Below, one piece after another: positions 12,371-59,782 of a stretch of DNA of 64,000 nt. The position numbers were made by a program, and so were the translations under genes. The DNA lies in NCBI GenBank assembly GCA_964592785.1, contig CAZQHU010000001.1, positions 45,687-109,686 on the forward strand, written 5' to 3'. A model generated the notes under the pieces. It searched no databases. It had not been told where the DNA came from and saw only the letters and a list, made by a program, of their open reading frames with translations. Source of the stretch: an uncultured Gammaproteobacteria bacterium (lineage in GTDB: Bacteria; Patescibacteriota; Patescibacteriia; Magasanikbacterales; UBA922). How positions within the stretch are numbered: the first letter of the stretch is position 1; every line of letters begins with the position of its first letter.

Positions 12371-13108
12371 TTACTTAGTGATAGTTTTGGCCTGGTTTAG
12401 ATCATATGATCCAATCGCTGTTCTTTTTAATTCTTCGCAATAAGCGCCACAGCCAAGTTTTTGGCCAATATCATTGGCAAGGGTGCGGATATAAGTTCCT
12501 GTTGAACAATTTACTTCAATTTTTAAGTCAGGATAGCTATATTCCAATAATTTTATATTATAAATCTCTATTTTTTGTTTTTTGCGTTTTATATTTTTTC
12601 CTTTTCTGGCCAGTTTATACAGTTTTTGGCCGTTTATTTTTTTAGCGGAGAACATGGGGGGGAGTTGTTTTTGTTTGCCGATGAACTTTTTTAAAACTTT
12701 TTCAATTACCCCCCTTGAAAAAGAGGGGCGAGGGGGGATATTGGCCAAGAATTTTGACAACATCCCCCTTATTCCCTCTTTTTTAAGTGGGAGAATATTT
12801 CCTGTCTTATCAAAAGTATCACTAACATATCCAAGTTTGATTGTTGCAATATAAGTTTTGGGAAGATTTTTAAATTCATCCAGTTTTCTGGTTGCTTCGC
12901 GGCCAATACCAACAATTAAAAGGCCGGTCGCAAAAGGATCTAGTGTTCCACTGTGACCTACCTTCGCCTTGCAGGCTTCGGTGGGCAAGCCATTTTTTTT
13001 TCTTTCCTGGTAAATTTGTTTTCTAATATAATTAACCACGTCAAAGCTGGTCCAACCTGCCGGCTTATTAATCAATAAAAAATTATGATATAATTCAGTC
13101 ATATGCAA
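12371..13108 (-). CDS. truB: tRNA pseudouridine(55) synthase TruB, with an in-frame GC-hairpin repeat insertion at about 12698-12790
   Basis: LLINKPAGWTSFDVV and GHSGTLDPFATGLL catalytic region; insertion translated as LPLKKEGIRGMLSKFLANIPPRPSF. Confidence 0.85.
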   Translation of the reverse strand: MHMTELYHNFLLINKPAGWTSFDVVNYIRKQIYQERKKNGLPTEACKAKVGHSGTLDPFATGLLIVGIGREATRKLDEFKNLPKTYIATIKLGYVSDTFDKTGNILPLKKEGIRGMLSKFLANIPPRPSFSRGVIEKVLKKFIGKQKQLPPMFSAKKINGQKLYKLARKGKNIKRKKQKIEIYNIKLLEYSYPDLKIEVNCSTGTYIRTLANDIGQKLGCGAYCEELKRTAIGSYDLNQAKTITK

Positions 13109-14065
13109 AACAATAATACTCTTGGTTGGGGAGTGAAGTCAACAGCTGGCGCTGAGATCTGGGATAGTGAGCCAATTTTTAAAAATGAAAAAATAAATTA
13201 TAAAGATTGGCTCAAACTTCTTTTTTATCCTAAGAAATGGTTTTTGTATCGCTGGGTGAAGAGCGGGGTGAACAAGGTGGAAAAAGAAAATAATATTGTT
13301 AGAGTGTTAGACGTAGGATGTGGCACAGGCGCAAGTCTAGTTGATTTTAAAAGAATTTTTGGTAGAAAAGTTGAGGTTTATGGAGTAGAGGTGGTGCGTT
13401 TGCAAGTAGATTTGGCCAAAGAAAAAATAAGCAAATATGGAGTCTGGTCAGAAGTGAAGTGGTATGATGGGCAAGAATTGCCTTTTTCAGAAAATTATTT
13501 TGATGCTATATATACTTCTGATGTTTTGGGCCATGTGGCTGATGTGCGTTCTTGGCTTGGTGAATTGAATAGGGTTTTAAAATCTGGTGGAACTTTAGCG
13601 ATGTTTGCTGAATCAAAGCTCGGCAAGCACGCTTACATTCGCAATTATTTATCTGAGCATGGTTTGAATGTTGATCCTCATGCTGAGTTTCATATCTCAC
13701 TTTATTCCAAAAATATTTTACAAGAATATTTGGAAGCAGCGGGTTTTCAAATTAAAAAAATGTATAGTGCTTTTTGGGCAAGTTTTTTGGTGCATCCAGA
13801 TGAGTTTTATCATGCATTACAACGTCATCCTGAGCGAAGCCCACAAGGCGGAGTCGAAGGATCTCTTAGTTCTCGGGATGTTTCGGCTTTGCTCAACATG
13901 ACAATTAGAATTTTAAAATTTATTAATAAAGTTTTGTATAAAATCAAGAAAAAACTCCATCCCTATTCTACAGCTTTGTGTGAGTTGTATGGTTTGGTGG
14001 AGATGTATTTGGTTGGTAGATTTGTAGAAGCCCAAGGATATGTGATATTGGCTAAGAAGAAATAA
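13103..14065 (+). CDS. Class I SAM-dependent methyltransferase with an in-frame family-1 repeat insertion (13834-13875)
   Basis: VLDVGCGTGASLVD motif I; insertion translated as HPERSPQGGVEGSL. Confidence 0.6.
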   Translation: MQNNNTLGWGVKSTAGAEIWDSEPIFKNEKINYKDWLKLLFYPKKWFLYRWVKSGVNKVEKENNIVRVLDVGCGTGASLVDFKRIFGRKVEVYGVEVVRLQVDLAKEKISKYGVWSEVKWYDGQELPFSENYFDAIYTSDVLGHVADVRSWLGELNRVLKSGGTLAMFAESKLGKHAYIRNYLSEHGLNVDPHAEFHISLYSKNILQEYLEAAGFQIKKMYSAFWASFLVHPDEFYHALQRHPERSPQGGVEGSLSSRDVSALLNMTIRILKFINKVLYKIKKKLHPYSTALCELYGLVEMYLVGRFVEAQGYVILAKKK

Positions 14066-14202
14066 AAACACCCACCATGAAAGTGGGTGTTTTTAATATT
14101 TTCAATCTCCGGTTTGTACTTGTCACAAATATTTATGGCAAGTAGGTGTGCCGGAGAGTGAGGATATGTGATGCCGGCACATGCGTGGGTGAAGTTATCG
14201 GT

Positions 14203-14850
14203 CTAGACGAGGAGGATGAAGCTGTTGTCGTTCGATGGGTAGCCAGAGGAGTGTCTATAGGTTACCTCGTTGTCAGTAACCTTGAAGACATCAGTTGATG
14301 CTGGCATCTCGCGTTCCCTTCGAACAATACAAACTTCTTTGCCTGTGAGTTGTTTTCGATGTTCTCGGACGAACGCGATGACCTCTTGCAAGGTTGCTGA
14401 ACGTCTTCCCAGAACCTTGTAGACCACCTGTTCGATGGTTTCTTCGAATTTGCTCAGATTGCACATTGGCCCAAATCCAGCAAGAGGGAAAAGGAAAACT
14501 GGAAGGGCATAAGTGGTTGTCCTTTCACTGAAATTGAGGAAATGTGAGACAAGATGACCACTTTGCGTTCTTTCCGTGCATTTGAACAAACGATTGAACT
14601 CTTCTTCGTTTACGGCCTGGCCGTTCATGTTGAGTACGAAGCGTTCGCAAGTGACGCCGACCACCGACTTTCCAGCTGATGCGGGCAAGTCTTGGGCCCT
14701 GGTCAACACCAGTTTTCTCCTGATGATCATCAAGAGTCTGGACCAGTTGTCCAGGACCCATTGGATGACCATCTCCGCCTCGGGGTATTTCCCGGACGTG
14801 AGATCATGTAGAACTCCCCATCCATCAGGTCTGTCCTTTTTCGTTCCCAT
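14203..14850 (-). CDS. Hypothetical 215-aa protein, GC-rich island B (start placed at the ATG with an AAGGAG RBS; the six-frame ORF extends to 14952)
   Basis: Composition contrasts with flanks; AAGGAGAAcatcATG; no recognisable motifs. Confidence 0.4.
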   Translation of the reverse strand: MGTKKDRPDGWGVLHDLTSGKYPEAEMVIQWVLDNWSRLLMIIRRKLVLTRAQDLPASAGKSVVGVTCERFVLNMNGQAVNEEEFNRLFKCTERTQSGHLVSHFLNFSERTTTYALPVFLFPLAGFGPMCNLSKFEETIEQVVYKVLGRRSATLQEVIAFVREHRKQLTGKEVCIVRREREMPASTDVFKVTDNEVTYRHSSGYPSNDNSFILLV

Positions 14851-15187
14851 GATGTTCTCCTTTACCCATCTGGTAATGACGGTTTCAGCTACCGAGCTTT
14901 TGCTCTTGACCGAAGCCGATAAGCCAGACGAGCGCATGTGGGCTAGGACCAATTCCTAGCTCTAGATTTTATATACCATATATTGTTTATTTTGTAAAGC
15001 TAGTGCACCTATATCAATCATTGGGAGCAAACAATTTTTGATTAATTATTCATTATAAATTAAAAAATCCGCTTAAAACGGATTTTTTAATTTCAATTAT
15101 TTACAAATAATTTTGTAAACACTTGAGTCACCCCGGTCCTCCAGGTCCGAGTGCTCCTACAGTGTAGGAAAGGTGCAGGACAGTTGG

Positions 15188-15541
15188 TCACAACATGCCC
15201 CAATAGAAGAGTTTGGAGACAAGTGGAATATTGAAAACGGCGCCGATGATGGTTTCGACACTTCCTTCTGAGGGTGTCTTGTAGAAGACAAATGCAGGAA
15301 TGCCACAGATGCTGTGGGCCTTGGCAATTGTTGGGCAATTGTCCGCATTGAATTCCACAATCTTGAGTCGGTGGCCGAATTCTTCGGCTATATGGTTGAG
15401 ACGATCTATGGCAAGCCCACAGGGTTGGCACCAATCTGTCCAGAAGAAAACTAGCACTGGTATGGGCGATTTGGTCACTTCTTGTTCGAAGTTTGTCGTG
15501 GTCCCGTGCGTTACCTGCTCGTGAAATCTTGGCATTGCCAT
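15188..15541 (-). CDS. Thioredoxin (GC-rich, second copy; distinct from native trxA at 24035)
   Basis: WCQPCGLA active site in a thioredoxin-length protein; the overlapping ORF 15093..15617 is an artefact. Confidence 0.75.
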   Translation of the reverse strand: MAMPRFHEQVTHGTTTNFEQEVTKSPIPVLVFFWTDWCQPCGLAIDRLNHIAEEFGHRLKIVEFNADNCPTIAKAHSICGIPAFVFYKTPSEGSVETIIGAVFNIPLVSKLFYWGML

Positions 15542-15659
15542 TAGAGTCTCTCCTGCAGAAGTAATTGTTCAAACATCTTCCAATATGATTTTTATAATAA
15601 ATCTTATTTTTTGTCAATAGTTCATACTTGGCATTTTATTTTAACGTGTTATAATTAAA

Positions 15660-17867
15660 ATGGTTAATTTTAAAAGCCATTTTTTTATGTCAAATAATCC
15701 AATACATTTAGATTTACAAAATAAAAATTTAGAGGATTTACCAGGTATTGATGTAGCCAAATTTAATGAGTTGGCTCGTATTATGCGTGGTTTTATTTTT
15801 GCCACAGTAGAGGCGGCGCGTAGTGGACACCCTGGCGGGCCATCGGCCAAAGTGGAACAGTTTCTTGGCATGGTACTTGGTGGGACAATGGCTTTTGATG
15901 CATTGGATCCCAAAAACCCTGGTCGAGATAGAGTGATTTGGTCGGCGGGACATTGCTCACCTGGCTTGTACGCTGGCTTGGCTTTAATTTATGAAAGTTT
16001 GAGAAAAGCTGGAATAAAATTTGATAAAGAAAAATTGCAAACTTATTTGCCAGAAGATTTGGTTCGCTTTCGCCATCCCGATGGGCCACAGGGTCATATT
16101 GAAAATTATAATCCTTTAACAGATTTTGCCACTGGCCCTTCTGGACATGGTTTGTCTGGTGCTGGTGGTATGGCAGTAGTACACAAATCATGTGGACTGG
16201 ATACGCGAGTTTGGGTGTTTATGGGTGATGCTGAGAGTGAAGAGGGTATGAGTTATGAGGCGCGCAATCTTATCAACACTTTGGGATTGGATAATGTGAT
16301 TGTTAGTCTTGATTATAATCATTATGGGATTGATGGCGATATTGATGAAGTGATTGCTACTCCATATATCAATCATTGGTTGGGGTTGGGTTGGAATGTG
16401 ATTGAAATTGATGGGCACAATATTTTGCAGTGCGTTCATGCTTATCGACAGGCGGCCAAAGGATTTGGAAACAGCAGTCCAACAGTAGTTTTGGCACATG
16501 CTATCAAAGGCAAGGCCTATGGACAAAAAGAAAATACTGCAGATTCACATGGTACGCCAGCCAAATTTGATGAGTATGTACAAATCATGAAAGAATTAGG
16601 ATTTGAGATTCCAGGAGTTGAAAAAGAAGTGTTGAAAGATGTTGAAGTGGTGAGTGAAGCAATTACTTCGGAGTTAGCAGGATATGTGAAAGAAAGACTT
16701 GAAAGTCAAAAGTCAAAAGTCAAAAGTCAAAAAGAATTGACTGGTCAAATGGAGAAAACATTGGCTGGGCGTCAGTTAGTCAATCCAACTAGTATAAAAC
16801 GACCAAAAGAATTACCGACAGAGCTTATTTTTGAACCTGGAACAAAAGTGGCGACTAGAAAAGCCACTCAAGCCTGGTTTGAATGGTTGATGAAACAAAC
16901 AGCATTTTTTTATGCAGGAACAGGGGACTTGAGCAAATCTATTCTTACTGATAAAGCAGAAAAAGTGTTTGGAATAATGTCTCGTGAAAATCCTTTGGGT
17001 AGGGGAATTCGTTTTGGGATAGCTGAGCAAAACATGGCCATGTGGTCTACCGCCCTTACAACCGATCGTTTACCGGGAGGATTTGCACCAGTTTCAGTTT
17101 TTTCTTCTTATGCAGTGTTTACTTCCATGATGACCAATTGTGTACGTTTGACTTTGATCAATAATCATTTAAATCCAGAAAACAAAGGCTTTTTTATTTT
17201 ACTAGCGGCGCATGATGGCCCAGAAACAGGCGAGGACGGACCTACTCATCAGGGGATGTATTGGATGAGTATGTTCACCGCTTATCCAGGAATAAAAGTT
17301 TATAAACCAATGGATGCCAATGAAACAATTGAAATGCTTTTTTACGCTCTAGAACGCGGTGAGCCGATCGCTTTGTCAGTGAGTCGTCCAGATACTATTG
17401 TTTTGGATAGAAGTATTGGAAATTCAAAAGCTAGTGAGGCGGTAAATGGGGCATATGTGTTCTACGAAAGTCAAAAGTCTTTAAAGTCCATAAAGTCAAA
17501 AGTCGTGATTGTGGTTGCTGGTGGAATTACTTTGGCGAATACGATGGAGACAGTGCCGGAGTTGGAAAAACAGGGATTGAGTGTGAAAGTATTAGCAGTA
17601 ACTTCTCCCCAGCTTTTTGAAGAGTTGAGGAAAAATGATCCAAAGAAAGCCGAGGAAATATTTTCTGCTGAAGACAGAAAAAATGTGATAGCCATACACA
17701 ATGGTTGGAAAGGGTTTCTTTATCCGTTTCTTTTGCCAGAAGATTATCTGGAGCGAAATATTGGCATTGATACTTATCTCAAATCCGGCAATATAAAGGA
17801 AGTGTATGAATTGGCTGGGTTGACGACGGAAAATATTAAACAGAAAATTTTAAATATTAAAAAATAA
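15660..17867 (+). CDS. tkt: Transketolase (alternative start at 15687) with two in-frame KS-repeat insertions
   Basis: SGHPGGPSAKVEQFLGMVLGG TPP-binding N-terminus and GDAESEEG motif; insertions at 16703-16733 and 17467-17505. Confidence 0.85.
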   Translation: MVNFKSHFFMSNNPIHLDLQNKNLEDLPGIDVAKFNELARIMRGFIFATVEAARSGHPGGPSAKVEQFLGMVLGGTMAFDALDPKNPGRDRVIWSAGHCSPGLYAGLALIYESLRKAGIKFDKEKLQTYLPEDLVRFRHPDGPQGHIENYNPLTDFATGPSGHGLSGAGGMAVVHKSCGLDTRVWVFMGDAESEEGMSYEARNLINTLGLDNVIVSLDYNHYGIDGDIDEVIATPYINHWLGLGWNVIEIDGHNILQCVHAYRQAAKGFGNSSPTVVLAHAIKGKAYGQKENTADSHGTPAKFDEYVQIMKELGFEIPGVEKEVLKDVEVVSEAITSELAGYVKERLESQKSKVKSQKELTGQMEKTLAGRQLVNPTSIKRPKELPTELIFEPGTKVATRKATQAWFEWLMKQTAFFYAGTGDLSKSILTDKAEKVFGIMSRENPLGRGIRFGIAEQNMAMWSTALTTDRLPGGFAPVSVFSSYAVFTSMMTNCVRLTLINNHLNPENKGFFILLAAHDGPETGEDGPTHQGMYWMSMFTAYPGIKVYKPMDANETIEMLFYALERGEPIALSVSRPDTIVLDRSIGNSKASEAVNGAYVFYESQKSLKSIKSKVVIVVAGGITLANTMETVPELEKQGLSVKVLAVTSPQLFEELRKNDPKKAEEIFSAEDRKNVIAIHNGWKGFLYPFLLPEDYLERNIGIDTYLKSGNIKEVYELAGLTTENIKQKILNIKK

Positions 17868-17933
17868 CTGTCATTCCTGCGAAGGCAGGAATCCAGATTT
17901 TTGATTAGATTCCCACCTTCCCGGGAATGACAA
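17868..17933. repeat. Inverted pair of GTCATTCCTGCGAAGGCAGGAATC-type repeats (family 5) forming a hairpin
   Basis: CTGTCATTCCTGCGAAGGCAGGAATC...GATTCCCACCTTCCCGGGAATGACA; further copies at 33784-33847, 34181-34245 and 44010-44076. Confidence 0.7.
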
Positions 17934-19559: not shown

Positions 19560-20165
19560 ATGGATGAGGAAATGCTTCCACAACCAGTTGAAATAGGTGA
19601 AAATCAAAGAAGGTTGGAATTATTGGAAACAGTACCATCGGATTTTGGAAATGCAACAGAAGAAGTAGTATCCAGTCTTACTGGGGATGTTAAAAGTGCA
19701 GTGGATCCAAATGATCCTAGACAAGAAGAGCTAGCACAAAAAGCAATAGAAAAGGCAGAAAAGGAAAAAAGATACGCATTTGCTAGAGTAATTTTGCTTG
19801 AGGTTATTGGCAAATATCCAGGTCTTGAAGTGAATAGCATGGCTATTTTGGGTAAAGCCACTAGTTTTAGAGAGGGTGAGGAAAAATCTTCTGTGTTTAT
19901 GGATAATTTTAAAAAAGTGATTGTGGATATGATAAAGTCGGGTCTTAGTCCTTCGCAAATAGAAAGAAAAAAGGATAAAAATCAGCCAAAAAATGAAGTA
20001 AGATTGCCCAGGGCAGGAGTTGTATCAGTAGAGGGGAGAAATGATTTTATTAGAGGAACAAATATGACTGTCACAGAATATGTGGATGAAGCATATAAAA
20101 AAGTTTTATGGGCTTGTGAAGAATATGGGAAAGCTTATAACGCCATGATTGAAGGTACTTCATAA
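19560..20165 (+). CDS. Hypothetical protein
   Basis: 201-aa ORF with host-like composition followed by a strong terminator. Confidence 0.4.
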   Translation: MDEEMLPQPVEIGENQRRLELLETVPSDFGNATEEVVSSLTGDVKSAVDPNDPRQEELAQKAIEKAEKEKRYAFARVILLEVIGKYPGLEVNSMAILGKATSFREGEEKSSVFMDNFKKVIVDMIKSGLSPSQIERKKDKNQPKNEVRLPRAGVVSVEGRNDFIRGTNMTVTEYVDEAYKKVLWACEEYGKAYNAMIEGTS

Positions 20166-20316
20166 AAATATATAAATTTGGACAAAAATAAAAACCCCCG
20201 CCTTTCAGTTAACTTTCGAGGCGGGGTTTATTTTTGAGGTAGCCCCTAGGCGCGTGTTGAGGGCACGGCTTTGGGGCTTGGTTTGGAGGGCATAGAACCT
20301 CCGATTTTCCGACGCC

Positions 20317-20535
20317 TCACCTGCTGGCATGGCGTACGGGTAAAGAAAGAGCCTCGCGGTCGATCGCGATCGGTCGTCTGTCGATCCGAGAAGCGGCATA
20401 GAAGCCGTCTATGAGGACCGAGCCGTCCGGAGCGAAACCAACCACTTGGACGATACCATGCCCCTCACAATGGAACCAACGTCCCACTTGGGGTTCACGG
20501 TCATCGTCAACCAGAAATTCCTTACGTCCTTCCAT
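20317..20535 (-). CDS. Hypothetical 72-aa protein in GC-rich island C
   Basis: GGAGGTGAAAAATG ribosome-binding site; composition contrast with flanks. Confidence 0.4.
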   Translation of the reverse strand: MEGRKEFLVDDDREPQVGRWFHCEGHGIVQVVGFAPDGSVLIDGFYAASRIDRRPIAIDREALSLPVRHASR

Positions 20536-20653
20536 TTTTCACCTCCTTTGTGGAAGGGATAAGAGTAGTATAGGTTGTTGATAAGAATTTTTTAAGAAAC
20601 TTGTCAAGAGTTAATAAATATTTGTCTTATTTACATTTTGTCCACTTTTTTAA

Positions 20654-20682
20654 TTGACAATTTTTAAAAAATTAAGTAACAT
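20654..20682 (+). promoter_or_regulatory. Sigma70-like promoter TTGACA-N17-TAACAT
   Basis: Read directly; matches the promoter architecture at 26866 and 41985. Confidence 0.45.
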
Positions 20683-20689
20683 TTATTTG

Positions 20690-21107
20690 ACGTTGGTCCA
20701 GCGACGTTGCCTTTGGGGATAAGATCCTCACAACGTGTCCTGGAGTAAACCAACGAGTAGTCGAGGGGGCTAAGCCCCAATGTATAAGGATGGCCCACGT
20801 GCCATCCGAAGAACGGCGGTTCCTATACCGCCATGTACACTGGCGGGTTGGCTGCAAGATGCCAACCGCCACTCGCGGGCGCACGTCGCCCGGGTTCCCG
20901 GGGGCTGTGGTTACTTTGCCCCCACGCACTTCAGTGGCTTGCTACCTTTCGAGGCGCAGGCTTAGCTCTCCTGGATTTCCGGGACTGAAGTGACTGCTGA
21001 TGGTTCCCGTCGTGGTACTGTCCAAGGAGGGGGGAAGATTAGAGCAGATAATGTCTTCCCGCACCTCATACTTTAGACACCACCCAAAAGGGTGGTGTTT
21101 TTTTATT
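20690..21107 (+). ncRNA. Candidate structured noncoding RNA of about 415 nt, promoter to intrinsic terminator, GC-rich, class unknown
   Basis: Promoter at 20654-20682; terminator ACACCACCCAAAAGGGTGGTGTTTTTTT at the 3-prime end; multiple internal hairpins; only short ORFs in all frames. Confidence 0.35.
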
Positions 21108-21214: not shown

Positions 21215-21310
21215 TTTTAGGAATGTCATGCTGAACTTGTTTCAGCATCTTTCCATAAAATGTATTTTTTAAATGATTTGTATTGAGAAAGACCCTGAAA
21301 CAGGTTCAGG
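21215..21310. repeat. Twin-hairpin repeat element (ATGCTGAACTTGTTTCAGCAT ... ACCCTGAAACAGGTTCAGGGT) immediately upstream of infB; second copy at 36985-37080
   Basis: Near-identical copy after the pyrH-like gene; the two hairpins are inverted copies of each other. Confidence 0.65.
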
Positions 21311-49184: not shown

Positions 49185-49198
49185 AAGGAGGAATGACG

Positions 49199-49558
49199 AT
49201 GTTTAGACTGCCTAAAGGTGTTTGTTTCTTCTTTATGAAAGATCCTGCTGATCGGGGGGTTCACCATCACCGCGGTAGAGGTCATAGGAGGACTGAAGAT
49301 CTGCCGGTCAAAGACCACGAACTTGGTCTAGGGTTTGAAGCTTGGGCGAGAAAGAAGGTGAGAGTTCCCACTGAACAGGAGACTCGTACCTACACCTATC
49401 ATCCGCTCATCACCGAACACTGCTTGGCTTGTGGTTGTCCACCAGATCGTCTGGGTGGTGGCCTTAACACCATTCCTTTCCCTGTTTTCACTTTGAAAGT
49501 GGACAGAGAAGGTGTGGTACGCCATGTTTGTGGTAAGGAGGTTTTCCGAATGAAGTAA
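49199..49558 (+). CDS. Hypothetical 119-aa Cys/His-rich protein, GC-rich island F
   Basis: AAAGGAGGAATGACGATG ribosome-binding site; HCLACGC...HVCGKE possible metal-binding site. Confidence 0.4.
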   Translation: MFRLPKGVCFFFMKDPADRGVHHHRGRGHRRTEDLPVKDHELGLGFEAWARKKVRVPTEQETRTYTYHPLITEHCLACGCPPDRLGGGLNTIPFPVFTLKVDREGVVRHVCGKEVFRMK

Positions 49559-49595
49559 TTCGGAACGTCTGCCGGCGCGTTAGTCCGGCACTCAC

Positions 49596-50489
49596 TTATC
49601 TTCCAGTAATGAGACAAACAACTGCTCCAGTAAATTTCCAATTATTTTCAATCGCCTTTTTCAATCCAGCTACTGAAAGAGCGCTGTTTGGAGAAATTTT
49701 TATTTTGCAAGTTTCTTCTATCAGGTTGATTGAATCTCTAATCTCTGAGTCTGTCACCACCCAACCTTTGCCTTGGGTATTTTTTAAAATTTCTAAGATT
49801 TTTTCTTTGCGGTGAGCTATATTGTCAACAATTGCATCAGCCAAAGATGTGTCAGTTTTTTCTTCTGAATCTACCATTGGGTGGCAGGCAGTGGTTTGAA
49901 CAATATGAATTTGCGTTGGACAGTTTAATTTTTTAAAAGCTTCACCAAGTGCTTGAGCAGTAGTGCCACTGGAAGTAGGAACAAAAACTGCTTGTAAATT
50001 GGGGATTTTGCTCAGTTCTTCTGCCAATTCAAAATAACCTTCAAGTGCCAGGTCATCAGTGGATTGGCGCAAGAATTTTTTTGTGCCATTCTTATCTTCC
50101 AAAAAAGCTTCTTGCTTGGGATTTTCTACTTGTTCTAGAGAAATATTTTGGTCTTCAATTACAGTCATCAAGATTTTTAATTTTTCCGGATTAATATTTT
50201 TACCAATATAAATTTTCAATTTTATTTTTTGTTCATTATTTCGATTGTGAGCTTGAACAGCATGAATGGCGGCGAGTGCGGCATTGCCCGAAGAAGAAAT
50301 GACAAACTCTTGATAGGGTCCACCAATCGTTTCAGTATAAGGTCCAACTTTTGAATATTTTTTGATCATTATTGGCAGGGATCTTCCTTTGTGTGAACCA
50401 TATTTATGAAGATCTTCTCGTTTGAGATAAACTTCCGGAGTATTTAGAGTTTCTGCTAATTCAGGGTAAGACTGTTGAATAGTTTTCAT
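49596..50489 (-). CDS. PLP-dependent fold-type II enzyme (threonine synthase / cysteine synthase-like)
   Basis: KREDLHKYGSHKGR (PLP-lysine motif GS[FH]K[DG]R), SSGNAA glycine loop. Confidence 0.6.
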   Translation of the reverse strand: MKTIQQSYPELAETLNTPEVYLKREDLHKYGSHKGRSLPIMIKKYSKVGPYTETIGGPYQEFVISSSGNAALAAIHAVQAHNRNNEQKIKLKIYIGKNINPEKLKILMTVIEDQNISLEQVENPKQEAFLEDKNGTKKFLRQSTDDLALEGYFELAEELSKIPNLQAVFVPTSSGTTAQALGEAFKKLNCPTQIHIVQTTACHPMVDSEEKTDTSLADAIVDNIAHRKEKILEILKNTQGKGWVVTDSEIRDSINLIEETCKIKISPNSALSVAGLKKAIENNWKFTGAVVCLITGR

Positions 50490-51376: not shown

Positions 51377-53017
51377 TTATATTTTAAAAAGGGATTCCTC
51401 ACCCTGTTGGGTTCGGAATTTTGAAATTAGTTCTTCAATCATTCCGCGGAAACCATGGCTACCACAAAAAACTATAGTAACCTTATTTTGTTTGATTAAA
51501 TAATTTACTAATTCTTCATCATCATCAATATATTTTACATTGGGGTGGGTCTTGGCAATGATTTTTGTCAGTTCGCTTCCTTCCCAGTGTTTTAATTTTT
51601 CTGAAGTTTTTAATTTGGTTAGTTTAGGAATAATTACTTCGTCAGCGTTTTCAAAAGCATTATTATAGCTTGGTTCAGATTGTGGTTGGCGATTGCCGGT
51701 ATTGGGTTCGAAGATGCAGAAGATTTTGGTTCTGTCATTTTGAGCCCCGCCTTGCGGGGAAGAATCCCGACGGGATCCTTCGTCACTTCGTTCCTCAGGA
51801 TGACGCTTGTATATGTTGGCTAAATTTTCCAAAACACTTTTGGCTTTGGCGGGGGAGTGAGCAATATCATCAAAAATAGTAATATTTTCATTTTCAAATC
51901 TTTTTTCCAGTCTTCTTTTTAGGCCTTGAAATTTAGCGATTGCTTGAATAATTTTTTCTGGTTCAATACCAATTTGGTGAGCCATGGCGAAAGCGCCGGT
52001 GATGTTTTCAACATTGTAAGAACCCAAGGTTTTAGTTTGTAGCTTATAGTTTTTAGAATCATGTATAATTTCAAACTGCAAACCAGATTTGTCCATTGTC
52101 ACATTGCCACATTGATACGTTGTCGATGGGGAAAATCCATATGTGATAATTTGGCAATTTGACAATTTGACAATGTTTTTTGTTTTTTCACCTGCTACAA
52201 TTATGCCATTCTTTGGCACAGACTTAATTAATTTTTCAAACGCCTGAAAATAACTTTTTTCAGTGGGATAAACATCCGCATGATCCCATTCTATGGCTGT
52301 CAAAAGCAGGTGAGTGGGGTGATAATGAAAAAATTTGGCGCCATCATCCCAGCGAGAAGATTTGTATTCATCACCTTCAAGTACTGACCAATCGTCATCT
52401 TGAGCGGATCCGCCAGTTGGCGGAGGAGTCGAAAGATCCCTTGTAAGAAGTAAGGGATTCTTCGACTTCGTCGCGTCTGGCGCGACTTCGCTCAGAATGA
52501 CGTTTCCTAAGCTAGCACTATCAAACTCATCAATCACAATTCCTCCAAACATATAACTGGGATTATAACCACATTCTGACAGGATAAAAGAGAGTAGGGC
52601 AGAAGTCGAGGTCTTACCATAGGTACCAGCACAAACAATTGAATTTTCTTTAACAAAATATTTTTCAATAGCTTCTGGATAAGATAAATAATTTAATTTA
52701 TTTTTTTGAACATAGAGCCACTCAGGATTTGTAGAACTAGCGACATTGCCGACTATTACTAAATGGTCATTTTTTCCTCCTTCGCTACCACCTTCGCCAA
52801 GGCTTTGGCGGTCAAGAAAGCTTCGGAGGACGAAGTCTGGATGCCAGCCTGGATAGAAATCTATCTGATGTTTTTCTAGATTGGTAGAAACTGGAGGAAA
52901 GAAACCGACATCAGATCCGGACACCTCAAAACCAGCTTTTTTGAAAGCTATAGCGAGAGCCGACATGGCTACTCCACAGATGCCGATGAAATGAATTTTG
53001 TGAATTTTGTTGTTCAT
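51377..53017 (-). CDS. murC: Mur ligase (MurC/Mpl-type) with three in-frame repeat insertions
   Basis: IHFIGICGVAMSALAIAFKKAGFEVSGSD N-terminus, GTYGKTSTS P-loop; insertions at 51734-51804, 52394-52503 and 52775-52838. Confidence 0.8.
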   Translation of the reverse strand: MNNKIHKIHFIGICGVAMSALAIAFKKAGFEVSGSDVGFFPPVSTNLEKHQIDFYPGWHPDFVLRSFLDRQSLGEGGSEGGKNDHLVIVGNVASSTNPEWLYVQKNKLNYLSYPEAIEKYFVKENSIVCAGTYGKTSTSALLSFILSECGYNPSYMFGGIVIDEFDSASLGNVILSEVAPDATKSKNPLLLTRDLSTPPPTGGSAQDDDWSVLEGDEYKSSRWDDGAKFFHYHPTHLLLTAIEWDHADVYPTEKSYFQAFEKLIKSVPKNGIIVAGEKTKNIVKLSNCQIITYGFSPSTTYQCGNVTMDKSGLQFEIIHDSKNYKLQTKTLGSYNVENITGAFAMAHQIGIEPEKIIQAIAKFQGLKRRLEKRFENENITIFDDIAHSPAKAKSVLENLANIYKRHPEERSDEGSRRDSSPQGGAQNDRTKIFCIFEPNTGNRQPQSEPSYNNAFENADEVIIPKLTKLKTSEKLKHWEGSELTKIIAKTHPNVKYIDDDEELVNYLIKQNKVTIVFCGSHGFRGMIEELISKFRTQQGEESLFKI

Positions 53018-53088: not shown

Positions 53089-53802
53089 TTATTTAAGGAT
53101 TTCTTTCAGCTCATTTAAACTATCACTCCATTTCTCACCATCAAACCATTCCAATCCTGTGAATTGTAGTTTGTAAGTGTCAGTTGGACGTTGGGCAGAT
53201 CCCAAGTAAATATATTTTTTATTATTTTCTTTGGCGTAGAGAATAGCTCGGAGCATCATACCCATGCCGAGGTTGGATAAACCGACCGTTAAAGAATAGA
53301 AAGGATAGGAGTAGTGTAGGATTTCGTTCGTTTCGTGACAGATGGCGTAGCCGATGATGAGGTCATCCTGAGCGGATCCGCCAGTTGGCGGAGGAGTCGA
53401 AGGATCCCTTTCTAACTCGGGATTCTTCACTTCGTTCAGAATGACGTATTTGAAAAGTTTATTAAAATTATGTTCAGTCGTTAATAATTCTTTTATCTTG
53501 TTGGCAGAAAAAACTCCTTTACCAAATTTAGTTTCGTAAAAATCTTTAGCAATTTTACCAATTTGCCAGTTGTAACTAGTAACTGGTAACTCGTAACTAG
53601 TAAATGTTAAGTTTTCAGTTTTTTTTAAAATGCGTTTATTTTCGCTTGACAATTTAAACTTGTTCAAATCAATTCGTAAACTTCGCGTTTGGTACATGCT
53701 TCCCAAGTGTTCGCGGGTGAATAAATAACCCTCGTTGTAGAGAGAGTTGATGTTGTCGTCGGAAAAATTAGTAGTAGTTTTTTCGTTCCATTTTAGGTAC
53801 AT
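53089..53802 (-). CDS. Ate1/Bpt-like aminoacyl-tRNA--protein transferase (tentative) with an in-frame family-1 repeat insertion (53363-53446)
   Basis: C-terminal YIYLGS...YKLQFTGLEWFDGEKW resembles the Bpt/Ate1 C-domain. Confidence 0.4.
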   Translation of the reverse strand: MYLKWNEKTTTNFSDDNINSLYNEGYLFTREHLGSMYQTRSLRIDLNKFKLSSENKRILKKTENLTFTSYELPVTSYNWQIGKIAKDFYETKFGKGVFSANKIKELLTTEHNFNKLFKYVILNEVKNPELERDPSTPPPTGGSAQDDLIIGYAICHETNEILHYSYPFYSLTVGLSNLGMGMMLRAILYAKENNKKYIYLGSAQRPTDTYKLQFTGLEWFDGEKWSDSLNELKEILK

Positions 53803-55540: not shown

Positions 55541-55716
55541 AAGTCTAGATTATTTTATCAACAATTGACTAAAAAATCAAGTTTTGAAAATGCTTGAAAA
55601 ATTTTTGGATTTGTGTTTAAATAAATTGAAAGCTTGAATAAAAGAGCTGATGAGGTTGGGATTTACTCGTCCTAGTAGAGTTGATTTGGTCAGCTCTTTC
55701 ACAACTGGAGGCAATC

Positions 55717-56871
55717 ATGTCCATTGGTGGAGTGGTCATCACTACGGGCGTAGCCTGTGCCAAACTGGATCTGCTCAAGGTCATGATCGAGATGGTTCTC
55801 CAGGCAGGTCTTCAGCCGGTGTTGCGGATCAATACCGCGCATCACGGCAGTCCGTTGTTCCAGCAGATACTGGACGTGACCTGTGAAGCTAGGTATGCGT
55901 ATCCGGAAGGTGAAGTCCTGCTTCAGATGGACTTGCCTGGTCCGAAAATCCGCGCGCGGATTGCAAGCGGGGTCAAGGAAAGGGAACTCAAGCCTGGTGA
56001 TGAGATCTTCTTCGGCCATGAAGGCTGTCTACCGCAGTTCTCGTTCAACAATGGCCGTGAACTTCTCTGCCCCAATCTGCCCGAAGTGCTCTTTGGGCTG
56101 GAGGCGGGGATGGACATTGTCATGGCCGACGGTGCATTCCGTTTCCAGGTGAAGGAAGTGGTGGAGCAAAATCGTCTATTCCTGCTCGTGGTCTTGAGGG
56201 CCAAGGAAGTGTTCAAGGATTACCGTGGTGTTTCCTTCCCGAAACGGAGAGGTATCGGTGGTATCTGCTGCCCCACTCAGGAAGACCTAGACCTGGTACC
56301 GCTGGTAGTTTCTTCGAGTGCGAACATCGTTGCCCAATCCTTCACGCTGAACGGTGATTCCATTCGCACTCTGCGTTCGCAGATCGAGAAGTGCGGTGGA
56401 AGGAACGTGCAGGTGATGGCTAAGCCGGAAAACCGCGATGCCTTGTACAACTGGAGGAGCATCTGCGAAGCGAGCGATTCACTGATGGTTCCTCGGGGTG
56501 ACCTGGCAGTGGAAGTCTCCCTTCTGGATCTGCCTTTCATCCAGCAGATACTGGTCATTTGGGGACGTTCCTACAACAAGCCGGTCACCATTGGTACGGG
56601 GCTCTTGCGTAGCATGCTCGAAGACGACGAGTATGCACGTTCGGAAGCCACGGATGTCACGGTGGCGATTCAGCAGCTCTGGGGGACCCCAGGCTTCGTG
56701 ATGCTGACGAACGAAACCTGCGAGGGTAAACACCCGGCCGAGACCGTGGCAGTGATCCTGGCGACGGTCCAGAGGAACAGGAAGTATTTGGAGATCCTTC
56801 ACCATCTGGTTCCGACTGACTTGGACAGGTTCGAGGAGGAATATCGGGGGCTTTTGGACAGTTGCACTTGA
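55717..56871 (+). CDS. Divergent pyruvate-kinase-like TIM-barrel protein lacking the C-terminal domain, GC-rich island G
   Basis: GGAGGcaatcATG ribosome-binding site; DLPGPKIR, MAKPENRDAL, MVPRGDLAVEV and KPVTIGTGLLRSM parallel the PK motifs DTKGPEIR, KIENQEG, MVARGDLG and KPVICATQMLESM. Confidence 0.6.
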   Translation: MSIGGVVITTGVACAKLDLLKVMIEMVLQAGLQPVLRINTAHHGSPLFQQILDVTCEARYAYPEGEVLLQMDLPGPKIRARIASGVKERELKPGDEIFFGHEGCLPQFSFNNGRELLCPNLPEVLFGLEAGMDIVMADGAFRFQVKEVVEQNRLFLLVVLRAKEVFKDYRGVSFPKRRGIGGICCPTQEDLDLVPLVVSSSANIVAQSFTLNGDSIRTLRSQIEKCGGRNVQVMAKPENRDALYNWRSICEASDSLMVPRGDLAVEVSLLDLPFIQQILVIWGRSYNKPVTIGTGLLRSMLEDDEYARSEATDVTVAIQQLWGTPGFVMLTNETCEGKHPAETVAVILATVQRNRKYLEILHHLVPTDLDRFEEEYRGLLDSCT

Positions 56872-56940
56872 TCTCCCTTGGGAGGTGGAGGGAATCGTGG
56901 TCTGGTTGATTAGTGCGATAAGTAGAAAGGAGGTGTGATC

Positions 56941-57279
56941 ATGATGCCTGAACTCGTCAGAACCTTTGGAGGACATCAGTTTCCGCTCTCCATTTACATG
57001 GGAGAGAGGAAGGTGGTGGTCCAGGTACCAGAAGAAGGAGAACTCAAGACCATCGAGCGTGGTTCTGGCAATGGCAGGAAGGTCATCCTCTACCCGCTGA
57101 CCATGGTCGATGGAGTGAATCACCGTTTCGTGTTCAATCACGAAAATGGTGTTCCGATTTCGGGCTACATCGAGGAAGCCAAGGGACACCGTCTCAAGCC
57201 GGGAGTGAAATTCACCTTTTCGGTGATCACGAGCGGTGGTCGGTGCCCGGTCCAGGCTCGAGTGGAACTGCAGTCATAG
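56941..57279 (+). CDS. Hypothetical 112-aa protein, GC-rich island G
   Basis: AAAGGAGGTGTGATCATG ribosome-binding site. Confidence 0.4.
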   Translation: MMPELVRTFGGHQFPLSIYMGERKVVVQVPEEGELKTIERGSGNGRKVILYPLTMVDGVNHRFVFNHENGVPISGYIEEAKGHRLKPGVKFTFSVITSGGRCPVQARVELQS

Positions 57280-57324
57280 TCCTGGGGGCTTGACTGACTG
57301 GCCGGCTTGTGTTAGGATAGTTTT

Positions 57325-57600
57325 GGCTAACTTCGCGTGAAGGGACCGCACGAATGCTCTGCTACGGGCGCGGTTGCGCGAATTTTGGCTGGCCCACAGG
57401 GGCCGGGTGGTGGGTCGTTTGGCACGACCCCCCAGGTTGGACACCGTTGCAAGATACGGCGACCATGGCCTTTCGGCCCACCACCCAACCCTGTCCACAA
57501 GGAGGACGGGGGTGTATTCTGCACCCCCCAAGTTCCAAACCAATAAACATTTGTTGATTGGGAATAACAAAAAATCGCTTTAAAGCGATTTTTTGTTTTA
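57325..57600 (+). ncRNA. Candidate GC-rich structured RNA (promoter TTGACT-N17-TAGGAT at 57290-57318; terminator AAAAAATCGCTTTAAAGCGATTTTTTGTTTT)
   Basis: Long-range pairing GGCCGGGTGGTGGG / CCCACCACCCAACC; many overlapping short ORFs on both strands, typical of non-coding GC-rich sequence. Confidence 0.3.
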
Positions 57601-58365
57601 TATTTTTAATCTTTTTATTACAAATTCTTTGGCTTTTTTCGCATACTCTTGCATTTGTGGTTCGGACCAAGTTTGTTCTAATAAATTTTTGTTGGGGTTG
57701 GTAATTGTAATTGTTTCTTGTCGGACGCCGTGGTTGTATTGTCCGTCGGTAGGGTATTGGAAGGAGTGAATATAGTTCAGAGTTCCTAGTTCAGAGTTCA
57801 CAGACTCTACTAGTAAAACATGGTTGTAATCTTGTTTTAGTCCTGCACCCATAATAATGATCATATCACCCGGTTGAATTTCTGATAATTTAATTTCAAA
57901 ACTATTTACTTTGTGATGGAAAGTTCCCACGCCAGTATTTTCAATCGGACGAAGTTTGACCAAAAATTTTCTGAGAGGATTTTTGAACCAAGGTCTTTTC
58001 AAAACCTTATGTAAACTGCCTTTGCCACGAGCCTGCATTTCAGCGTCTAGTATGTGATAAACCAGTCCCGAACAATCAATACCTAGATTATGGTTGATTA
58101 AAAATTTTTTTAATTCTTCATTATTCAGTTTGTTTAAATCAACTTTTTCTCGGAGTGAAAAAATAGTTGCTTCTTCTACAATATCTTCAGGGCTACCTTT
58201 GCCGATCATGGCGCGTAAACCTCCGCGAAGTCGAGCACGACGATTATTAAAATAAGGACAAGAAATTTGTTTGCCAGGGAAGGGAAGTTGGAGATATTTT
58301 TGAATAACTTGCAGGGCTTGAGGAGATAGACTATTCATAATTTTTAATTTGAAATTTTTAAACAA
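57598..58365 (-). CDS. NlpC/P60-family cysteine peptidase-like protein
   Basis: GIDCSGLVYHIL catalytic Cys context and a downstream His. Confidence 0.55.
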   Translation of the reverse strand: MFKNFKLKIMNSLSPQALQVIQKYLQLPFPGKQISCPYFNNRRARLRGGLRAMIGKGSPEDIVEEATIFSLREKVDLNKLNNEELKKFLINHNLGIDCSGLVYHILDAEMQARGKGSLHKVLKRPWFKNPLRKFLVKLRPIENTGVGTFHHKVNSFEIKLSEIQPGDMIIIMGAGLKQDYNHVLLVESVNSELGTLNYIHSFQYPTDGQYNHGVRQETITITNPNKNLLEQTWSEPQMQEYAKKAKEFVIKRLKI

Positions 58366-58372
58366 TTTTTAA

Positions 58373-59782
58373 TTATTTAATTTTCAATAAATTTACAATT
58401 TTATTACCAATTATACTAAATTCATTATGTTTTTTCATTATTCCAGTTTTGCTTTGAATGCGAATCAAATCCGAATTTAATTTTGTGTTGTTATACTGGA
58501 TGGTATTAAAATTATTTTTTTTGAGTTTTTCAATAATCTTATAATTATTTAATTTTTTAATCATTTGCTCATCGTTCATTCTCTGTATTATTTGTGCCCC
58601 GTCTTGGATTTTGATTAATGTCTGATTTTCTAAATTCATGTTTAACAAAGCTAGTAAATGCGCTTCAAAAGTTGTCATTCCGAGCGAAGTCGAGGAATCC
58701 CTTTTACATTGTTTAAGGGATCCCTCCACTCGTTTACACTCGGTCGGGATGACAGACCGTTGTAATTGTGATTCGTAGGTAGTGGAGGCCGGTTGTCGGC
58801 AATTGATTTCCAACAAATACAATTTGCCAGTCTTCTCGTGCATTACTATATCGATCCCAAATAAACCGCGCCAACCAGCTTTTTTGAGCCTTAGACCAAC
58901 ATCAGTGGCAATTTTTTTATATTGTGCAATTTGTTTTTTATTTAAAATTTTATGAGGCAATGCCCAATCATTTCCAATAGTAGAAAAAGGCAGATCAGTA
59001 AAAGGCTTGAGGCCGGTAATTTGGTAATTGATATTACCAACCATTATTTCAGAATTTGCAACTACATTATTGTTGGTAAAAAGTGGACCAGGAATATATT
59101 CAGCGATTCGTACTTCACGTTCAGGAAATTTTTGTTGCAGAGTTTGTAGTTGTTTTTTGGATTCAATTAGAGTAGTACCACTACCAGTGTGGGATCTATT
59201 AAATTGCAGAATAAATGGCCCGACTCCGCTTCGTTGCGCCAGGGTAAGTTTACCCCAGGCAATTTCTTTACACTTCAAAACTTTATATTTTGGTAAATAT
59301 TTTTTTAATGGTCCGAGCCAAGTAATTTGCGAAATTTTTTCTTCTACCTCATTGGAAATTCTAGCTGGAGGATTTAGAAGTTTCCAATTATTTTCAGCAC
59401 AAGTTTTTTCAATTTGTAAGGTGTTTTTGAATACCAAAATCCCCCCCGGCCCCCCTTTACAAAGGGGGGAAGTGTCCAATTTCCCCCTTAGAAAAGGGGG
59501 ATTAAGGGGGATATTGGCAATATTATTAATAAACTTCTTTACTTGTTTATTCTGTAGTAGCTCCCAAGTATCCAGAATCTTTTTTTCTTTGATAAGTAAG
59601 ACATTTTTGTGTTTTTGATAAGACTTGGCAAAGTCAGAAAAATTTGAGATAATAAAATAACCTTTGGTATTAACAGGTAGTCCTAGAGCGCGCTCAAGAT
59701 CACGCGTAACGTAGATTATGGGTTGTTTGGTTAGGTCAAGCATAACGAGGGTAATTATAATAAAATTAAGCAAAAAAATCAA
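58373..59782 (-). CDS. ATP-grasp domain protein with two in-frame repeat insertions (58674-58755 family 1; 59438-59520 GC-hairpin family)
   Basis: LFGIDIVMHEKTGKLYLLEINCRQPAST C-terminal ATP-grasp signature. Confidence 0.6.
   Translation of the reverse strand: MIFLLNFIIITLVMLDLTKQPIIYVTRDLERALGLPVNTKGYFIISNFSDFAKSYQKHKNVLLIKEKKILDTWELLQNKQVKKFINNIANIPLNPPFLRGKLDTSPLCKGGPGGILVFKNTLQIEKTCAENNWKLLNPPARISNEVEEKISQITWLGPLKKYLPKYKVLKCKEIAWGKLTLAQRSGVGPFILQFNRSHTGSGTTLIESKKQLQTLQQKFPEREVRIAEYIPGPLFTNNNVVANSEIMVGNINYQITGLKPFTDLPFSTIGNDWALPHKILNKKQIAQYKKIATDVGLRLKKAGWRGLFGIDIVMHEKTGKLYLLEINCRQPASTTYESQLQRSVIPTECKRVEGSLKQCKRDSSTSLGMTTFEAHLLALLNMNLENQTLIKIQDGAQIIQRMNDEQMIKKLNNYKIIEKLKKNNFNTIQYNNTKLNSDLIRIQSKTGIMKKHNEFSIIGNKIVNLLKIK

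Follow-up and report, generated by a model that had tools for sequence, protein, structure and literature searches.

Hairpin repeats of a probable CGTC-tagged class, often in frame within housekeeping genes, in a 64-kb stretch of a Magasanikbacteria genome

The stretch of DNA analysed here (the window; 64,000 nt of contig CAZQHU010000001.1) comes from a metagenome-assembled genome and carries several families of short repeats, which lie in the spacers between genes and also, in frame, inside housekeeping genes. It has a G+C content of 36-44% and is gene-dense, with ~80% of it lying within open reading frames (ORFs) of at least 100 amino acids (aa); ~55 of its ORFs were scanned with Pfam and gave housekeeping functions only, and the best named relatives of its MurC all belong to Candidatus Magasanikbacteria or Patescibacteria (the candidate phyla radiation, CPR). 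A sequence-only reading of the window had proposed five families of palindromic repeats, tolerated in frame by conserved genes in the manner of Rickettsia palindromic elements (RPEs). All the sequences quoted in that reading are present at the coordinates it gave, and Pfam bears out the host genes it named, which encode TruB, an S-adenosylmethionine (SAM) methyltransferase, transketolase (Tkt), LeuRS, ComEC, MgsA/RarA, QueH, TsaE, an Elp3-type radical-SAM enzyme, MurC, an ATE_C/Bpt-like protein and an ATP-grasp protein. The reading frame is kept at every in-gene copy, the ORF running on without a break and conserved domains lying to either side. The recurrence is non-random, as had been claimed: repeat finding and self-BLAST recovered concordant repeat sets, and the counts lie far above those expected from dinucleotide shuffles, the background for the counts of doublets and of families 2 to 4. 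The repeats of the five proposed families are real, but single copies of families 2 and 3 are not palindromes, and families 1 and 5 are two variants sharing one design rather than separate kinds. A sixth family (GTCATGCTGAACTTGTTTCAGCATC), present at two intergenic sites, was overlooked, as were the copies that give the C-terminal residues and stop codons of ComEC and glutamate dehydrogenase (Table 1).

Families 1, 5 and 6 follow a common plan, in which a (C/T)GTC tag is followed by a stem starting with AT, a short loop of the GAAG type, and the complementary stem ending in AT and followed by C. Two such units, each 24-45 nt long in the window, face each other across a spacer of 10-40 nt to give a GTCAT...ATGAC doublet of 60-110 nt; inverted doublets account for 15 of the 17 GTCAT-type elements, and single units also occur (26799-26826 and 47075-47116). 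The GTC is invariant across the 15 doublets, the internal copy of comEC being degraded to CTCAT, and the full tag reads CGTC at 34181 and 44010 and TGTC at 17869, 21224 and 36983. Families 5 and 6 have 8-bp stems (ATTCCTGC/GCAGGAAT and ATGCTGAA/TTCAGCAT) with 4-nt loops, and the family-1 stem consists of ATCCT..AGGAT with G-A/A-G mismatches and a G-C pair. The family-1 loops are often enlarged and often hold an extra GC mini-hairpin (CCCCGCAAGGCGGGG, CGCGTC-N-GACGCG or CCGCCAGTTGGCGG), a module that is shared between different arms. The stems covary: a GTCAT-xyz head is followed by its cognate x'y'z'-ATC in 12 of 14 cases in the window (heads GTCAT-CCT, -TCT, -GCT and -GTT pair with AGG-, AGA-, AGC- and AAC-ATC, respectively) and in 29 of 35 cases in other Magasanikbacteria loci, the rule holds in unrelated genomes too, and non-cognate partners make up 1-2% of possible pairings. 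When folded as single-stranded DNA the doublets give z-scores of -2.2 to -7.4, and nine strongly folding GTCAT...ATGAC doublets were observed where the shuffles give 0.18 on average and one at most.

By a loose unit definition the window holds 23 units (0.36/kb). Nine of the 17 GTCAT-type elements are intragenic, and ~12 of ~60 genes are affected. Near-identical arms are found in unrelated genes, such as murC (52394-52442) and bpt (53362-53410) with 96% identity over 49 nt, arm pairs at 96-100% identity occur within the window, and leuS and murC have arms with 88-91% complementarity; the segments are therefore not ancestral protein sequence, an explanation that the sequence-only reading had considered and that also disagrees with the orthologue alignments below. 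No Rfam family covers the elements, the only matches being sub-threshold. Two of these, 34163-34259 against Francisella FtrB (E = 0.07) and 36932-37104 against Bacteroides BTnc231 (E = 0.03), involve curated small RNA families that may themselves have been built on REP-type doublets, REP denoting repetitive extragenic palindromes.

Alignment to homologues showed net insertions at many of the in-gene copies. In MurC, 60-90% of 120 orthologues lack the columns occupied by the repeat-derived segments (aa 64-82, 171-206 and 406-430). The LeuRS doublet at 29440-29532 (aa 265-291) adds 25 aa between residues 240 and 239 of Thermus thermophilus LeuRS (1h3n), QueH has a 26-aa insertion where structure 9dco has 2 aa, the Elp3-type protein a 17-aa insertion relative to 6iaz, and TruB ~17 extra residues relative to 1ze2. 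RarA has a net insertion of ~12 aa, and net insertions of 6 aa coincide with the family-3 copies of TsaE and the second site of Tkt. Pairwise alignment with the syntenic relative L003 (GCA_035417325.1) places two inserts in the ATP-grasp protein, and at the Bpt site there is no net gap relative to L003, which has a decayed remnant of equal length. At tkt 16703-16733 and leuS 31752-31792 no net insertion was found in the alignments; the same is true of the leuS copy at 28711-28740, which sits in an N-terminal extension instead of the core. The expectation that the inserts occupy surface loops agrees with the AlphaFold model of MurC (mean predicted local distance difference test score, pLDDT, 86.5; predicted template modelling score, pTM, 0.88), where low-confidence coil within the chain is confined to the three inserts. 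A junction-spanning MurC peptide predicted from the sequence reads ..GNVILSEVAPDATK.., and 1.84 billion representative proteins, searched with a 40-aa MurC insert peptide, gave three weak matches, which are uninformative on prevalence.

The way in which the inserts are read is itself non-random. Ten hairpin inserts are free of stops in only one to four of the six frames, and the host frame is open in every case (joint chance ~4e-5); for the murC 108-nt and bpt doublets the host frame is the sole open frame of the six, and intergenic doublets have 0-2 open frames. Since the host always reads one of the few open frames, the in-gene copies appear to represent a selected, read-through subset, and we infer from the open frames that they would be translated as disordered peptides. 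Strong hairpins in a coding mRNA would be expected to hinder translation, so removal from the mRNA or ribosomal bypassing, as for the 'byp' elements of yeast mitochondria, deserves consideration; the open host frame of all ten inserts, the preservation of frame across every insert and the decay of the old L003 copies as coding sequence of equal length make this highly improbable, and no splice-like or take-off/landing motifs were seen.

Comparison among relatives indicates that the elements come and go. At least one insert is present at the same three loops in 42 of 120 MurC orthologues, with a patchy distribution on a distance tree, and the insert peptides (VILSEAKNL, HPERS..VEGS, CHCEE..RRSNP, IPRSARNDS, LKQVQHD and PLLDKER) reveal many hairpin families; in one orthologue ~7 units form an in-frame cluster of 99 aa at site 3. 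Two near-isogenic pairs differ in occupancy, P0011 (filled) and P0019 (empty) at 94% DNA identity, and P0003 (filled) and P0015 (empty) at 89%. The P0003 insert consists of an 81-nt GTCAT...ATGAC doublet plus 6 nt, in which a GTCATTGCGAGG-type arm is joined to a family-1 arm. In filled/empty comparisons the element ends exactly at GTCAT..ATGAC, and the target-site duplication that the sequence-only reading had suggested looking for was found neither in the P0003/P0015 pair nor at any of the 15 window doublets examined. The 108-nt murC doublet, together with its spacer, matches a doublet of the bpt-like gene in a second genome, L125, at 102 of 108 positions; between the window and L125 the murC genes share 70% identity and the bpt genes 75%. 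The orthologous copies at the Bpt site in the window and L125 are 86% identical and differ in a 21-nt loop module. L003 has no units in 21.5 kb, its Bpt site being an AT-decayed remnant of equal length, and in L001 the Bpt site holds a family-4-like insert. The filled/empty pairs, the uniform doublets and the L003 remnant together indicate that copies have been gained recently, and that they remain homogeneous in lineages with the system and degrade in those without it. Whole-doublet and single-unit copying appear mixed, with the 108-nt doublet conserved with its spacer and the family-6 doublets sharing arms only. A metagenome scan for a lineage-specific 33-nt arm (TGAGCGGATCCGCCAGTTGGCGGAGGAGTCGAA) gave no match.

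The design of families 1, 5 and 6 is not new. Di Nocera, De Gregorio and Rocco (2013, PMC3733652) described a superfamily of CGTC-tagged REPs that includes Neisseria dRS3 (CGTC-1, equated with RPE-6) and Rickettsia conorii RPE-4 (CGTC-4) and is defined by a CGTC tag (variants TGTC and CCTC), an AT-first stem of 8-9 bp, a loop of 4-5 nt, a CCA tail and inverted dimers. These REPs have no associated transposase or REP-associated tyrosine transposase (RAYT), and intragenic copies occur in several species, with dimers encoding 20-30 aa and hosts including truB and aminoacyl-tRNA synthetase genes. The Neisseria NTS (CGTCATTCCCGCGMAVGCGGGAATCYRG) described by Chenal et al. (2025, PMC11893778) contains dRS3. 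SsnA, a GIY-YIG nuclease of 94 aa with a single domain, binds and cleaves the NTS only when it is single-stranded; cleavage is governed by the three bases that precede the palindrome and binding by the C that follows it, and ssn homologues across phyla have related motifs at their flanks. Families 5 and 6 of the window have the tag, stem, loop and inverted dimers of CGTC REPs, family 1 conforms to them loosely, and the family-5 arm at 44053-44076 is identical at 24 of 24 positions to the dRS3/NTS core (positions 2-25 of the Neisseria NTS consensus). The analogy with Rickettsia drawn earlier was thus right and, for the GTCAT families, goes beyond analogy: RPE-4 and RPE-6 are CGTC-tagged REPs, and through the equation of RPE-6 with CGTC-1 and dRS3 the published work links the family-5 arm to an RPE.

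Other genomes connect the units with small GIY-YIG genes, assigned here by Pfam PF01541. The exact 26-nt family-1 unit occurs in at least 120 stretches from more than 15 phyla among one-genome-per-species contigs (~0.002 expected), and in a verrucomicrobial and a Ruminococcus genome (L036 and L038) it lies directly beside ~100-aa GIY-YIG genes. A unit lies within 400 nt of the gene in 54 of 80 metagenomic GIY-YIG loci (68%), units lie on both sides in 32 of the 70 loci with enough flanking sequence (46%), and unit density is 2.99/kb near the gene against 0.20/kb further away, a ~15-fold difference. Copies in other phyla are mostly intergenic, with in-frame cases such as that in Obg of the verrucomicrobium Candidatus Udaeobacter. 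Among viral contigs the family-1 unit was found on one only, and this near-absence makes carriage by phages unlikely. Profile homologues of Ssn-like GIY-YIG proteins are found in Verrucomicrobia, Oscillospiraceae, cyanobacteria, KSB1 and Thermodesulfovibrio, and none of the AT-rich GIY-YIG loci from metagenomes was assignable to CPR.

We therefore consider it likely that families 1, 5 and 6 are CGTC-tagged REPs related to the Ssn motifs, which are copied widely and of which only gene-sparing, in-frame copies in loops survive. Units and doublets would be copied into many places of the gene-dense Magasanikbacteria genome, possibly through recognition of their single-strand hairpins by an Ssn-type nuclease and without target duplication; selection would then remove copies that break genes, leaving those that have a stop-free frame, a length that is a multiple of three bases and a position in a tolerant surface loop or at a protein end, and these would be read as disordered peptides. 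The same nuclease, or another trans-acting enzyme, may keep the copies uniform within the lineage.

Several observations weigh against this proposal. What Chenal et al. demonstrated for the NTS/Ssn system was cleavage and an effect on transformation, not transposition (PMC11893778). Neither a GIY-YIG gene nor a RAYT, Y1 transposase or other transposase was found by Pfam among the ~55 ORFs of the 64-kb window, motif regular expressions, reading of small ORFs and a six-frame jackhmmer search likewise gave no GIY-YIG protein there, and none of the 240 best homologues listed for Ssn-like proteins is labelled CPR, among the matches listed. The Ssn-related motif (SRM) pattern, HGTCWYN(0-2)YYVSBRHN(0-5)WNVSBRGN(0-2)RNCYNB, has one exact match in the window (34181-34208; 0.04 expected), other family-5 arms are one base off it and family 1 falls outside its fixed spacing; structural unit definitions were accordingly used in place of the strict pattern. 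The two family-6 doublets share arms (29 of 29 and 30 of 32 positions identical) and have unrelated spacers, which fits unit-wise assembly or selection on arms better than copying of whole doublets. For families 2 and 3 no counterpart is known, and their origin may be different. Finally, translation of the inserts is a prediction from their open frames.

Other routes of spread were weighed against the same evidence. RPE-1 is often described as moving by cut-and-paste through a transposase encoded by an insertion sequence (IS). A double-stranded mechanism of this type, in which an IS-encoded transposase recognizes terminal inverted repeats, would account for the inverted doublet ends GTCAT...ATGAC and for the occurrence of the 108-nt doublet, whole and with its spacer, in two genes of two genomes. 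We nevertheless regard it as quite unlikely, since target-site duplications and a transposase in the window are both lacking (which also separates the elements from miniature inverted-repeat transposable elements), single units occur alone, arms of different families are combined in one doublet, identical arms flank unrelated spacers, and each arm retains its own hairpin through compensatory changes. Mobilization as REPINs (inverted REP doublets) by a RAYT of the IS200/IS605 type, as for the GTAG REPs of Pseudomonas and Escherichia coli, matches the architecture, with its inverted hairpin doublets, clusters and absence of target duplication; the tag here is CGTC/TGTC instead of GTAG, no RAYT accompanies the CGTC REPs of Di Nocera et al. 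(PMC3733652), the window has no Y1 transposase and the gene that adjoins the units elsewhere encodes a GIY-YIG protein, so that this route is very unlikely.

An origin without mobility, in which variable linkers or low-complexity protein arise in place by slippage or drift, bears mainly on families 2 and 3. It agrees with the direct, all-sense AAAGTC heptads of the family-3 in-gene copies, which lack hairpin potential, with the two family-3 copies and the N-terminal family-2 copy of LeuRS that are not net insertions, and with the absence of AAAGTC over-representation outside the clusters. The recurrence of 22-54-nt sequences in unrelated genes and spacers, far above chance, and the 54 nt shared by queH and murC at 85% identity speak against it, and for families 1, 4, 5 and 6 the nucleotide identity of copies in unrelated genes and the empty sites of close relatives rule it out; overall we hold it to be unlikely. 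Repeats can also cause chimeras in metagenome-assembled genomes such as the source of the window, yet orthologous inserts of the same kind are present in independent NCBI, ENA, JGI and Logan assemblies, and reading frames and synteny are intact, so that an assembly or binning artefact is hardly credible.

Families 2, 3 and 4 differ from the elements discussed so far. Family 4 is a second hairpin doublet unrelated to the CGTC design, with arms of the form C5TT-loop-AAG5 followed by a G-run and ATATTGGC, z-scores of -2.5 to -5.7 and four units against 0.00 expected. A cassette at 40296-40730 has an architecture resembling that of the family-4 doublets, which were considered as its gene-less derivatives; no significant sequence similarity was found and the idea was rejected. 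The cassette comprises a 102-aa ORF (40370-40678) for a DUF559 protein (Vsr-like endonuclease) bracketed by terminal inverted repeats of ~55 nt, which are C-rich/G-rich hairpins (AATCCCCTCTAGAGAGGGGTG... / ...CACCCCTCTCTAGAGGGGATT); lodged as a whole between two genes, it resembles a small mobile element. Families 2 and 3 consist of short repeated motifs that form hairpins poorly or not at all. In family 2 any palindrome is weak (z +0.6 to -2.0), and four matches were counted against 0.00 expected. Family 3 has seven matches against 0.10 expected; its in-gene heptads have z near 0, and folding is limited to an intergenic pair of blocks (z = -4.8). A role for family 3 as a DNA-uptake or strand-marking word was considered and discarded, as AAAGTC is not over-represented beyond the clusters.

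Table 1. Repeat elements of the window (z, fold z-score; pLDDT from the AlphaFold model of MurC).
Element	Coordinates	Strand	Context and features
Family-1 doublet	13824-13902		In methyltransferase gene 13103-14065, read ..HPERSPQGGVEGSLSSRDVSALLNM..; beyond the C-terminal end of the methyltransferase domain (at about aa 217, Pfam); z = -2.3
Family-5 doublet, dRS3/NTS-like	17870-17931		Spacer between tkt and aminotransferase gene; left arm GTCATTCCTGCGAAGGCAGGAATC, then CCA tail
Family-6 doublet	21225-21315		Intergenic, upstream of infB; GTCATGCTGAAC.. / ..GTTCAGGGTGAT
Single family-1 unit	26799-26826	+	Overlaps final codons and TAG stop of glutamate dehydrogenase gene 25555-26814
Family-1 doublet	28571-28664		Immediately upstream of leuS; first leuS ORF ATG within terminal ATGAC
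Family-1 doublet	29440-29532		In leuS, read VMLSEVASDATKSKHPVEQRDPSPQGGAQDD; GC mini-hairpin in the loop of each arm; z = -3.1
Family-5 doublet	33773-33837		In comEC, mutated tags CTCAT..ATGAT, read LIPVKAGILAIKNKIPAFAGM; z = -5.4
Family-5 doublet	34182-34243		End of comEC; left arm gives last residues, spacer gives TAA stop
Family-1 doublet	34896-34997		Spacer before metallo-beta-lactamase-fold gene; minimum free energy -47.5 as RNA
Family-6 doublet	36984-37076		Intergenic; z = -7.3
Family-5 doublet	44011-44076		Intergenic; right arm 44053-44076, minus strand, GTCATTCCCGCGAAAGCGGGAATC; z = -7.4
Single family-1 unit	47075-47116	-	Inside Elp3-type gene, read HPERRTKTEVEES
Family-1 doublet	51734-51804		murC site 3, read HPEERSDEGSRRDSSPQGGAQND; coil, pLDDT 51-72
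Family-1 doublet, 108 nt	52394-52501		murC site 2, read VILSEVAPDATKSKNPLLLTRDLSTPPPTGGSAQDD; z = -6.3; pLDDT ~41
Family-1 doublet	53362-53445		ATE_C/Bpt-like gene, read VILNEVKNPELERDPSTPPPTGGSAQDD; z = -4.4
Family-1 doublet	58674-58753		ATP-grasp gene, read VIPTECKRVEGSLKQCKRDSSTSLGM; z = -4.9; half remnant only in L003 orthologue
Family-4 doublet	12710-12791		truB; C5TT..AAG5-N-G5ATATTGGC arms; z = -4.3
Family-4 doublet	59433-59518		ATP-grasp gene, read ANIPLNPPFLRGKLDTSPLCKGGPGGIL; absent from L003 orthologue
Variant C-rich/G-rich hairpin doublet	2753-2833		Intergenic, beyond the span of the sequence-only reading; z = -5.7
Family-2 cluster (CCNCCTYCGCTRAAGCTWCGGNGG)	9077-9412	+	Around tRNA-Glu
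Family-2 unit	28711-28736	+	LeuRS N-terminal extension; 1h3n alignment begins at aa 28
Nested family-2 units	41188-41243	+	queH; not palindromic, z = +0.6
Nested family-2 units	52776-52829	+	murC site 1; z = -2.0; pLDDT ~51
Family-3 AAAGTC heptad cluster	17467-17504	+	tkt second site
Family-3 copy	16693-16728		tkt
Family-3 copy	31758-31797		leuS
Family-3 copy	38874-38943		rarA, inner GC hairpin
Family-3 copy	42470-42499		tsaE
Family-3 copy	10004-10038		Intergenic
Family-3 copy	25405-25492		Intergenic
Family-3 copy	44993-45033		Intergenic

Set beside known systems, the GTCAT-type elements resemble most closely the CGTC REPs (PMC3733652), with which they share the CGTC/TGTC tag, the AT-first stem (8 bp with a 4-nt loop in families 5 and 6), the short tail, the prevalence of inverted dimers, several families per genome, the lack of an associated transposase and the in-gene singles, dimers and clusters in hosts that include truB and aminoacyl-tRNA synthetase genes. 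They differ in their CPR/Patescibacteria host, which lies outside the five phyla reported there, in the two G-A mismatches of the family-1 stem and the GC mini-hairpins of its loops, in a much larger intragenic share, and in the repeated occupation of the same protein loops, for which recB is the only case in that work. With the NTS/SRM-SsnA system (PMC11893778) they share the NTS core in one arm, the conserved upstream GTC and post-palindrome C, and the GIY-YIG flanking rates (68% and 46% here, 71% and 42% there); the window has no ssn gene and one copy only that fits the strict pattern, and the Neisseria repeats are intergenic and modulate transformation, whereas half of the copies here are coding. 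RPE-1 and the other RPEs of Ogata et al. (2000, 2002), as far as they are presented in PMC10969869, are likewise palindromic repeats of several families, placed in frame in unrelated housekeeping genes, giving surface-tolerated peptides, in the reduced genome of a host-dependent bacterium; RPE-1 measures ~100-150 bp and has its own consensus, compared with 60-110-bp doublets of 24-45-nt units here. REPs, bacterial interspersed mosaic elements (BIMEs) and REPINs with a RAYT have tagged hairpin units, inverted doublets, clusters, no target duplication and a presumed single-strand DNA intermediate in common with the present elements, but their tag is GTAG and their gene a tyrosine transposase, in place of CGTC and, elsewhere, a GIY-YIG nuclease. 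The coding palindromes of Nematomorpha mitochondria (PMC6649704) are also hairpin-forming inverted repeats in frame in conserved protein genes, but are long and perfect, have no shared tag or unit and do not form dispersed families.

The elements and their occasional coding position are therefore already known, and the statement of the sequence-only reading that such a situation would be unusual was too strong in this respect, as intragenic GTAG and CGTC REPs from several phyla were catalogued in 2013; the host phylum, density and turnover pattern are new relative to the papers searched. In that collection, which represents part of the literature, the presence in CPR, the high coding fraction, the recurrent use of loops and the conservation above that of host genes appear undescribed, and the finding is an extension of a known phenomenon, intragenic REPs, to a new phylum at unusually high density. 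A bolder reading, which we offer tentatively and consider more doubtful than the assignment to CGTC REPs, is that in Magasanikbacteria, and perhaps in CPR at large, the CGTC-REP doublets form an active, self-homogenizing system that continually rewrites surface loops. It is consistent with doublets that are 86-94% identical where host genes are ~70-75% identical, with MurC and Bpt loops reoccupied by different families, with mixed-family arm pairs, with the mini-hairpins nested in unit loops, and with decay only in lineages without any units. If this were true, REP activity, through an Ssn-type nuclease or on DNA imported by ComEC, would be a main source of lineage-specific protein inserts in CPR, at a density exceeding that in Rickettsia.

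Other features of the window and its relatives are recorded here in their own right. LeuRS (28660-32250, 1196 aa) carries, in a continuous frame, two whole extra domains within its catalytic body relative to the T. thermophilus enzyme: a NUDIX domain (aa 416-575, ~29905-30384) and an alpha/beta-hydrolase domain (aa 643-834, ~30586-31161), the latter exactly between residues 442 and 443 of 1h3n. The L003 orthologue of the ATP-grasp protein (L003 5552-7195) has a C-terminal NUDIX domain that is missing from the window protein (58373-59782), and MurB (60040-60080) and a PALP enzyme (~50300-50330) have further inserts of 8-9 aa, relative to the syntenic relative, that lie outside all repeat families. 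Between leuS and comEC (32253-32718) an ORF with a PDDEXK_3 (GxxExxY-type) nuclease fold (32303-32695) is bordered by 43-nt inverted repeats of AACGGATT-like words, and a free-standing gene for a '23S rRNA-intervening sequence protein' (four-helix bundle, PF05635) lies at 5199-5588 amid cell-envelope genes. A 2-kb block at 55541-57597, with 55% G+C compared with ~37% for the genome, contains a pyruvate-kinase barrel-domain ORF (55681-56871) together with ORFs that lack annotation; it is absent from L003 between the NlpC/P60-like gene and mraY and is probably acquired DNA. G+C-rich islands (50-56%, 400-900 nt) at 14501-15560, 20161-21100, 26841-27740, 45521-45960, 48521-49600 and 61161-61660 contain no Pfam-annotated ORF and, even at E = 0.1, gave no match in Rfam; strong GC hairpins occur in some (e.g. 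27496-27531), and the islands are candidate RNAs or small foreign genes.

Proteins of CPR/Patescibacteria are known for odd, lineage-specific insertions. Our results suggest one concrete source for them, namely dispersed hairpin repeats of a pan-bacterial class that may end up translated. They join three separate literatures, on the RPEs of Rickettsia, on dRS3/NTS and the Ssn nuclease of Neisseria and on REPs, and add a phylum where half the copies lie in coding sequence. In practical terms, inserts of this type make proteins longer, give rise to spurious 'hypothetical' ORFs and can lead CPR marker alignments and phylogenies astray. The filled and empty sites, together with doublets that are better conserved than their hosts, provide a natural system for the question of how CGTC REPs spread, which has stood since 2013.

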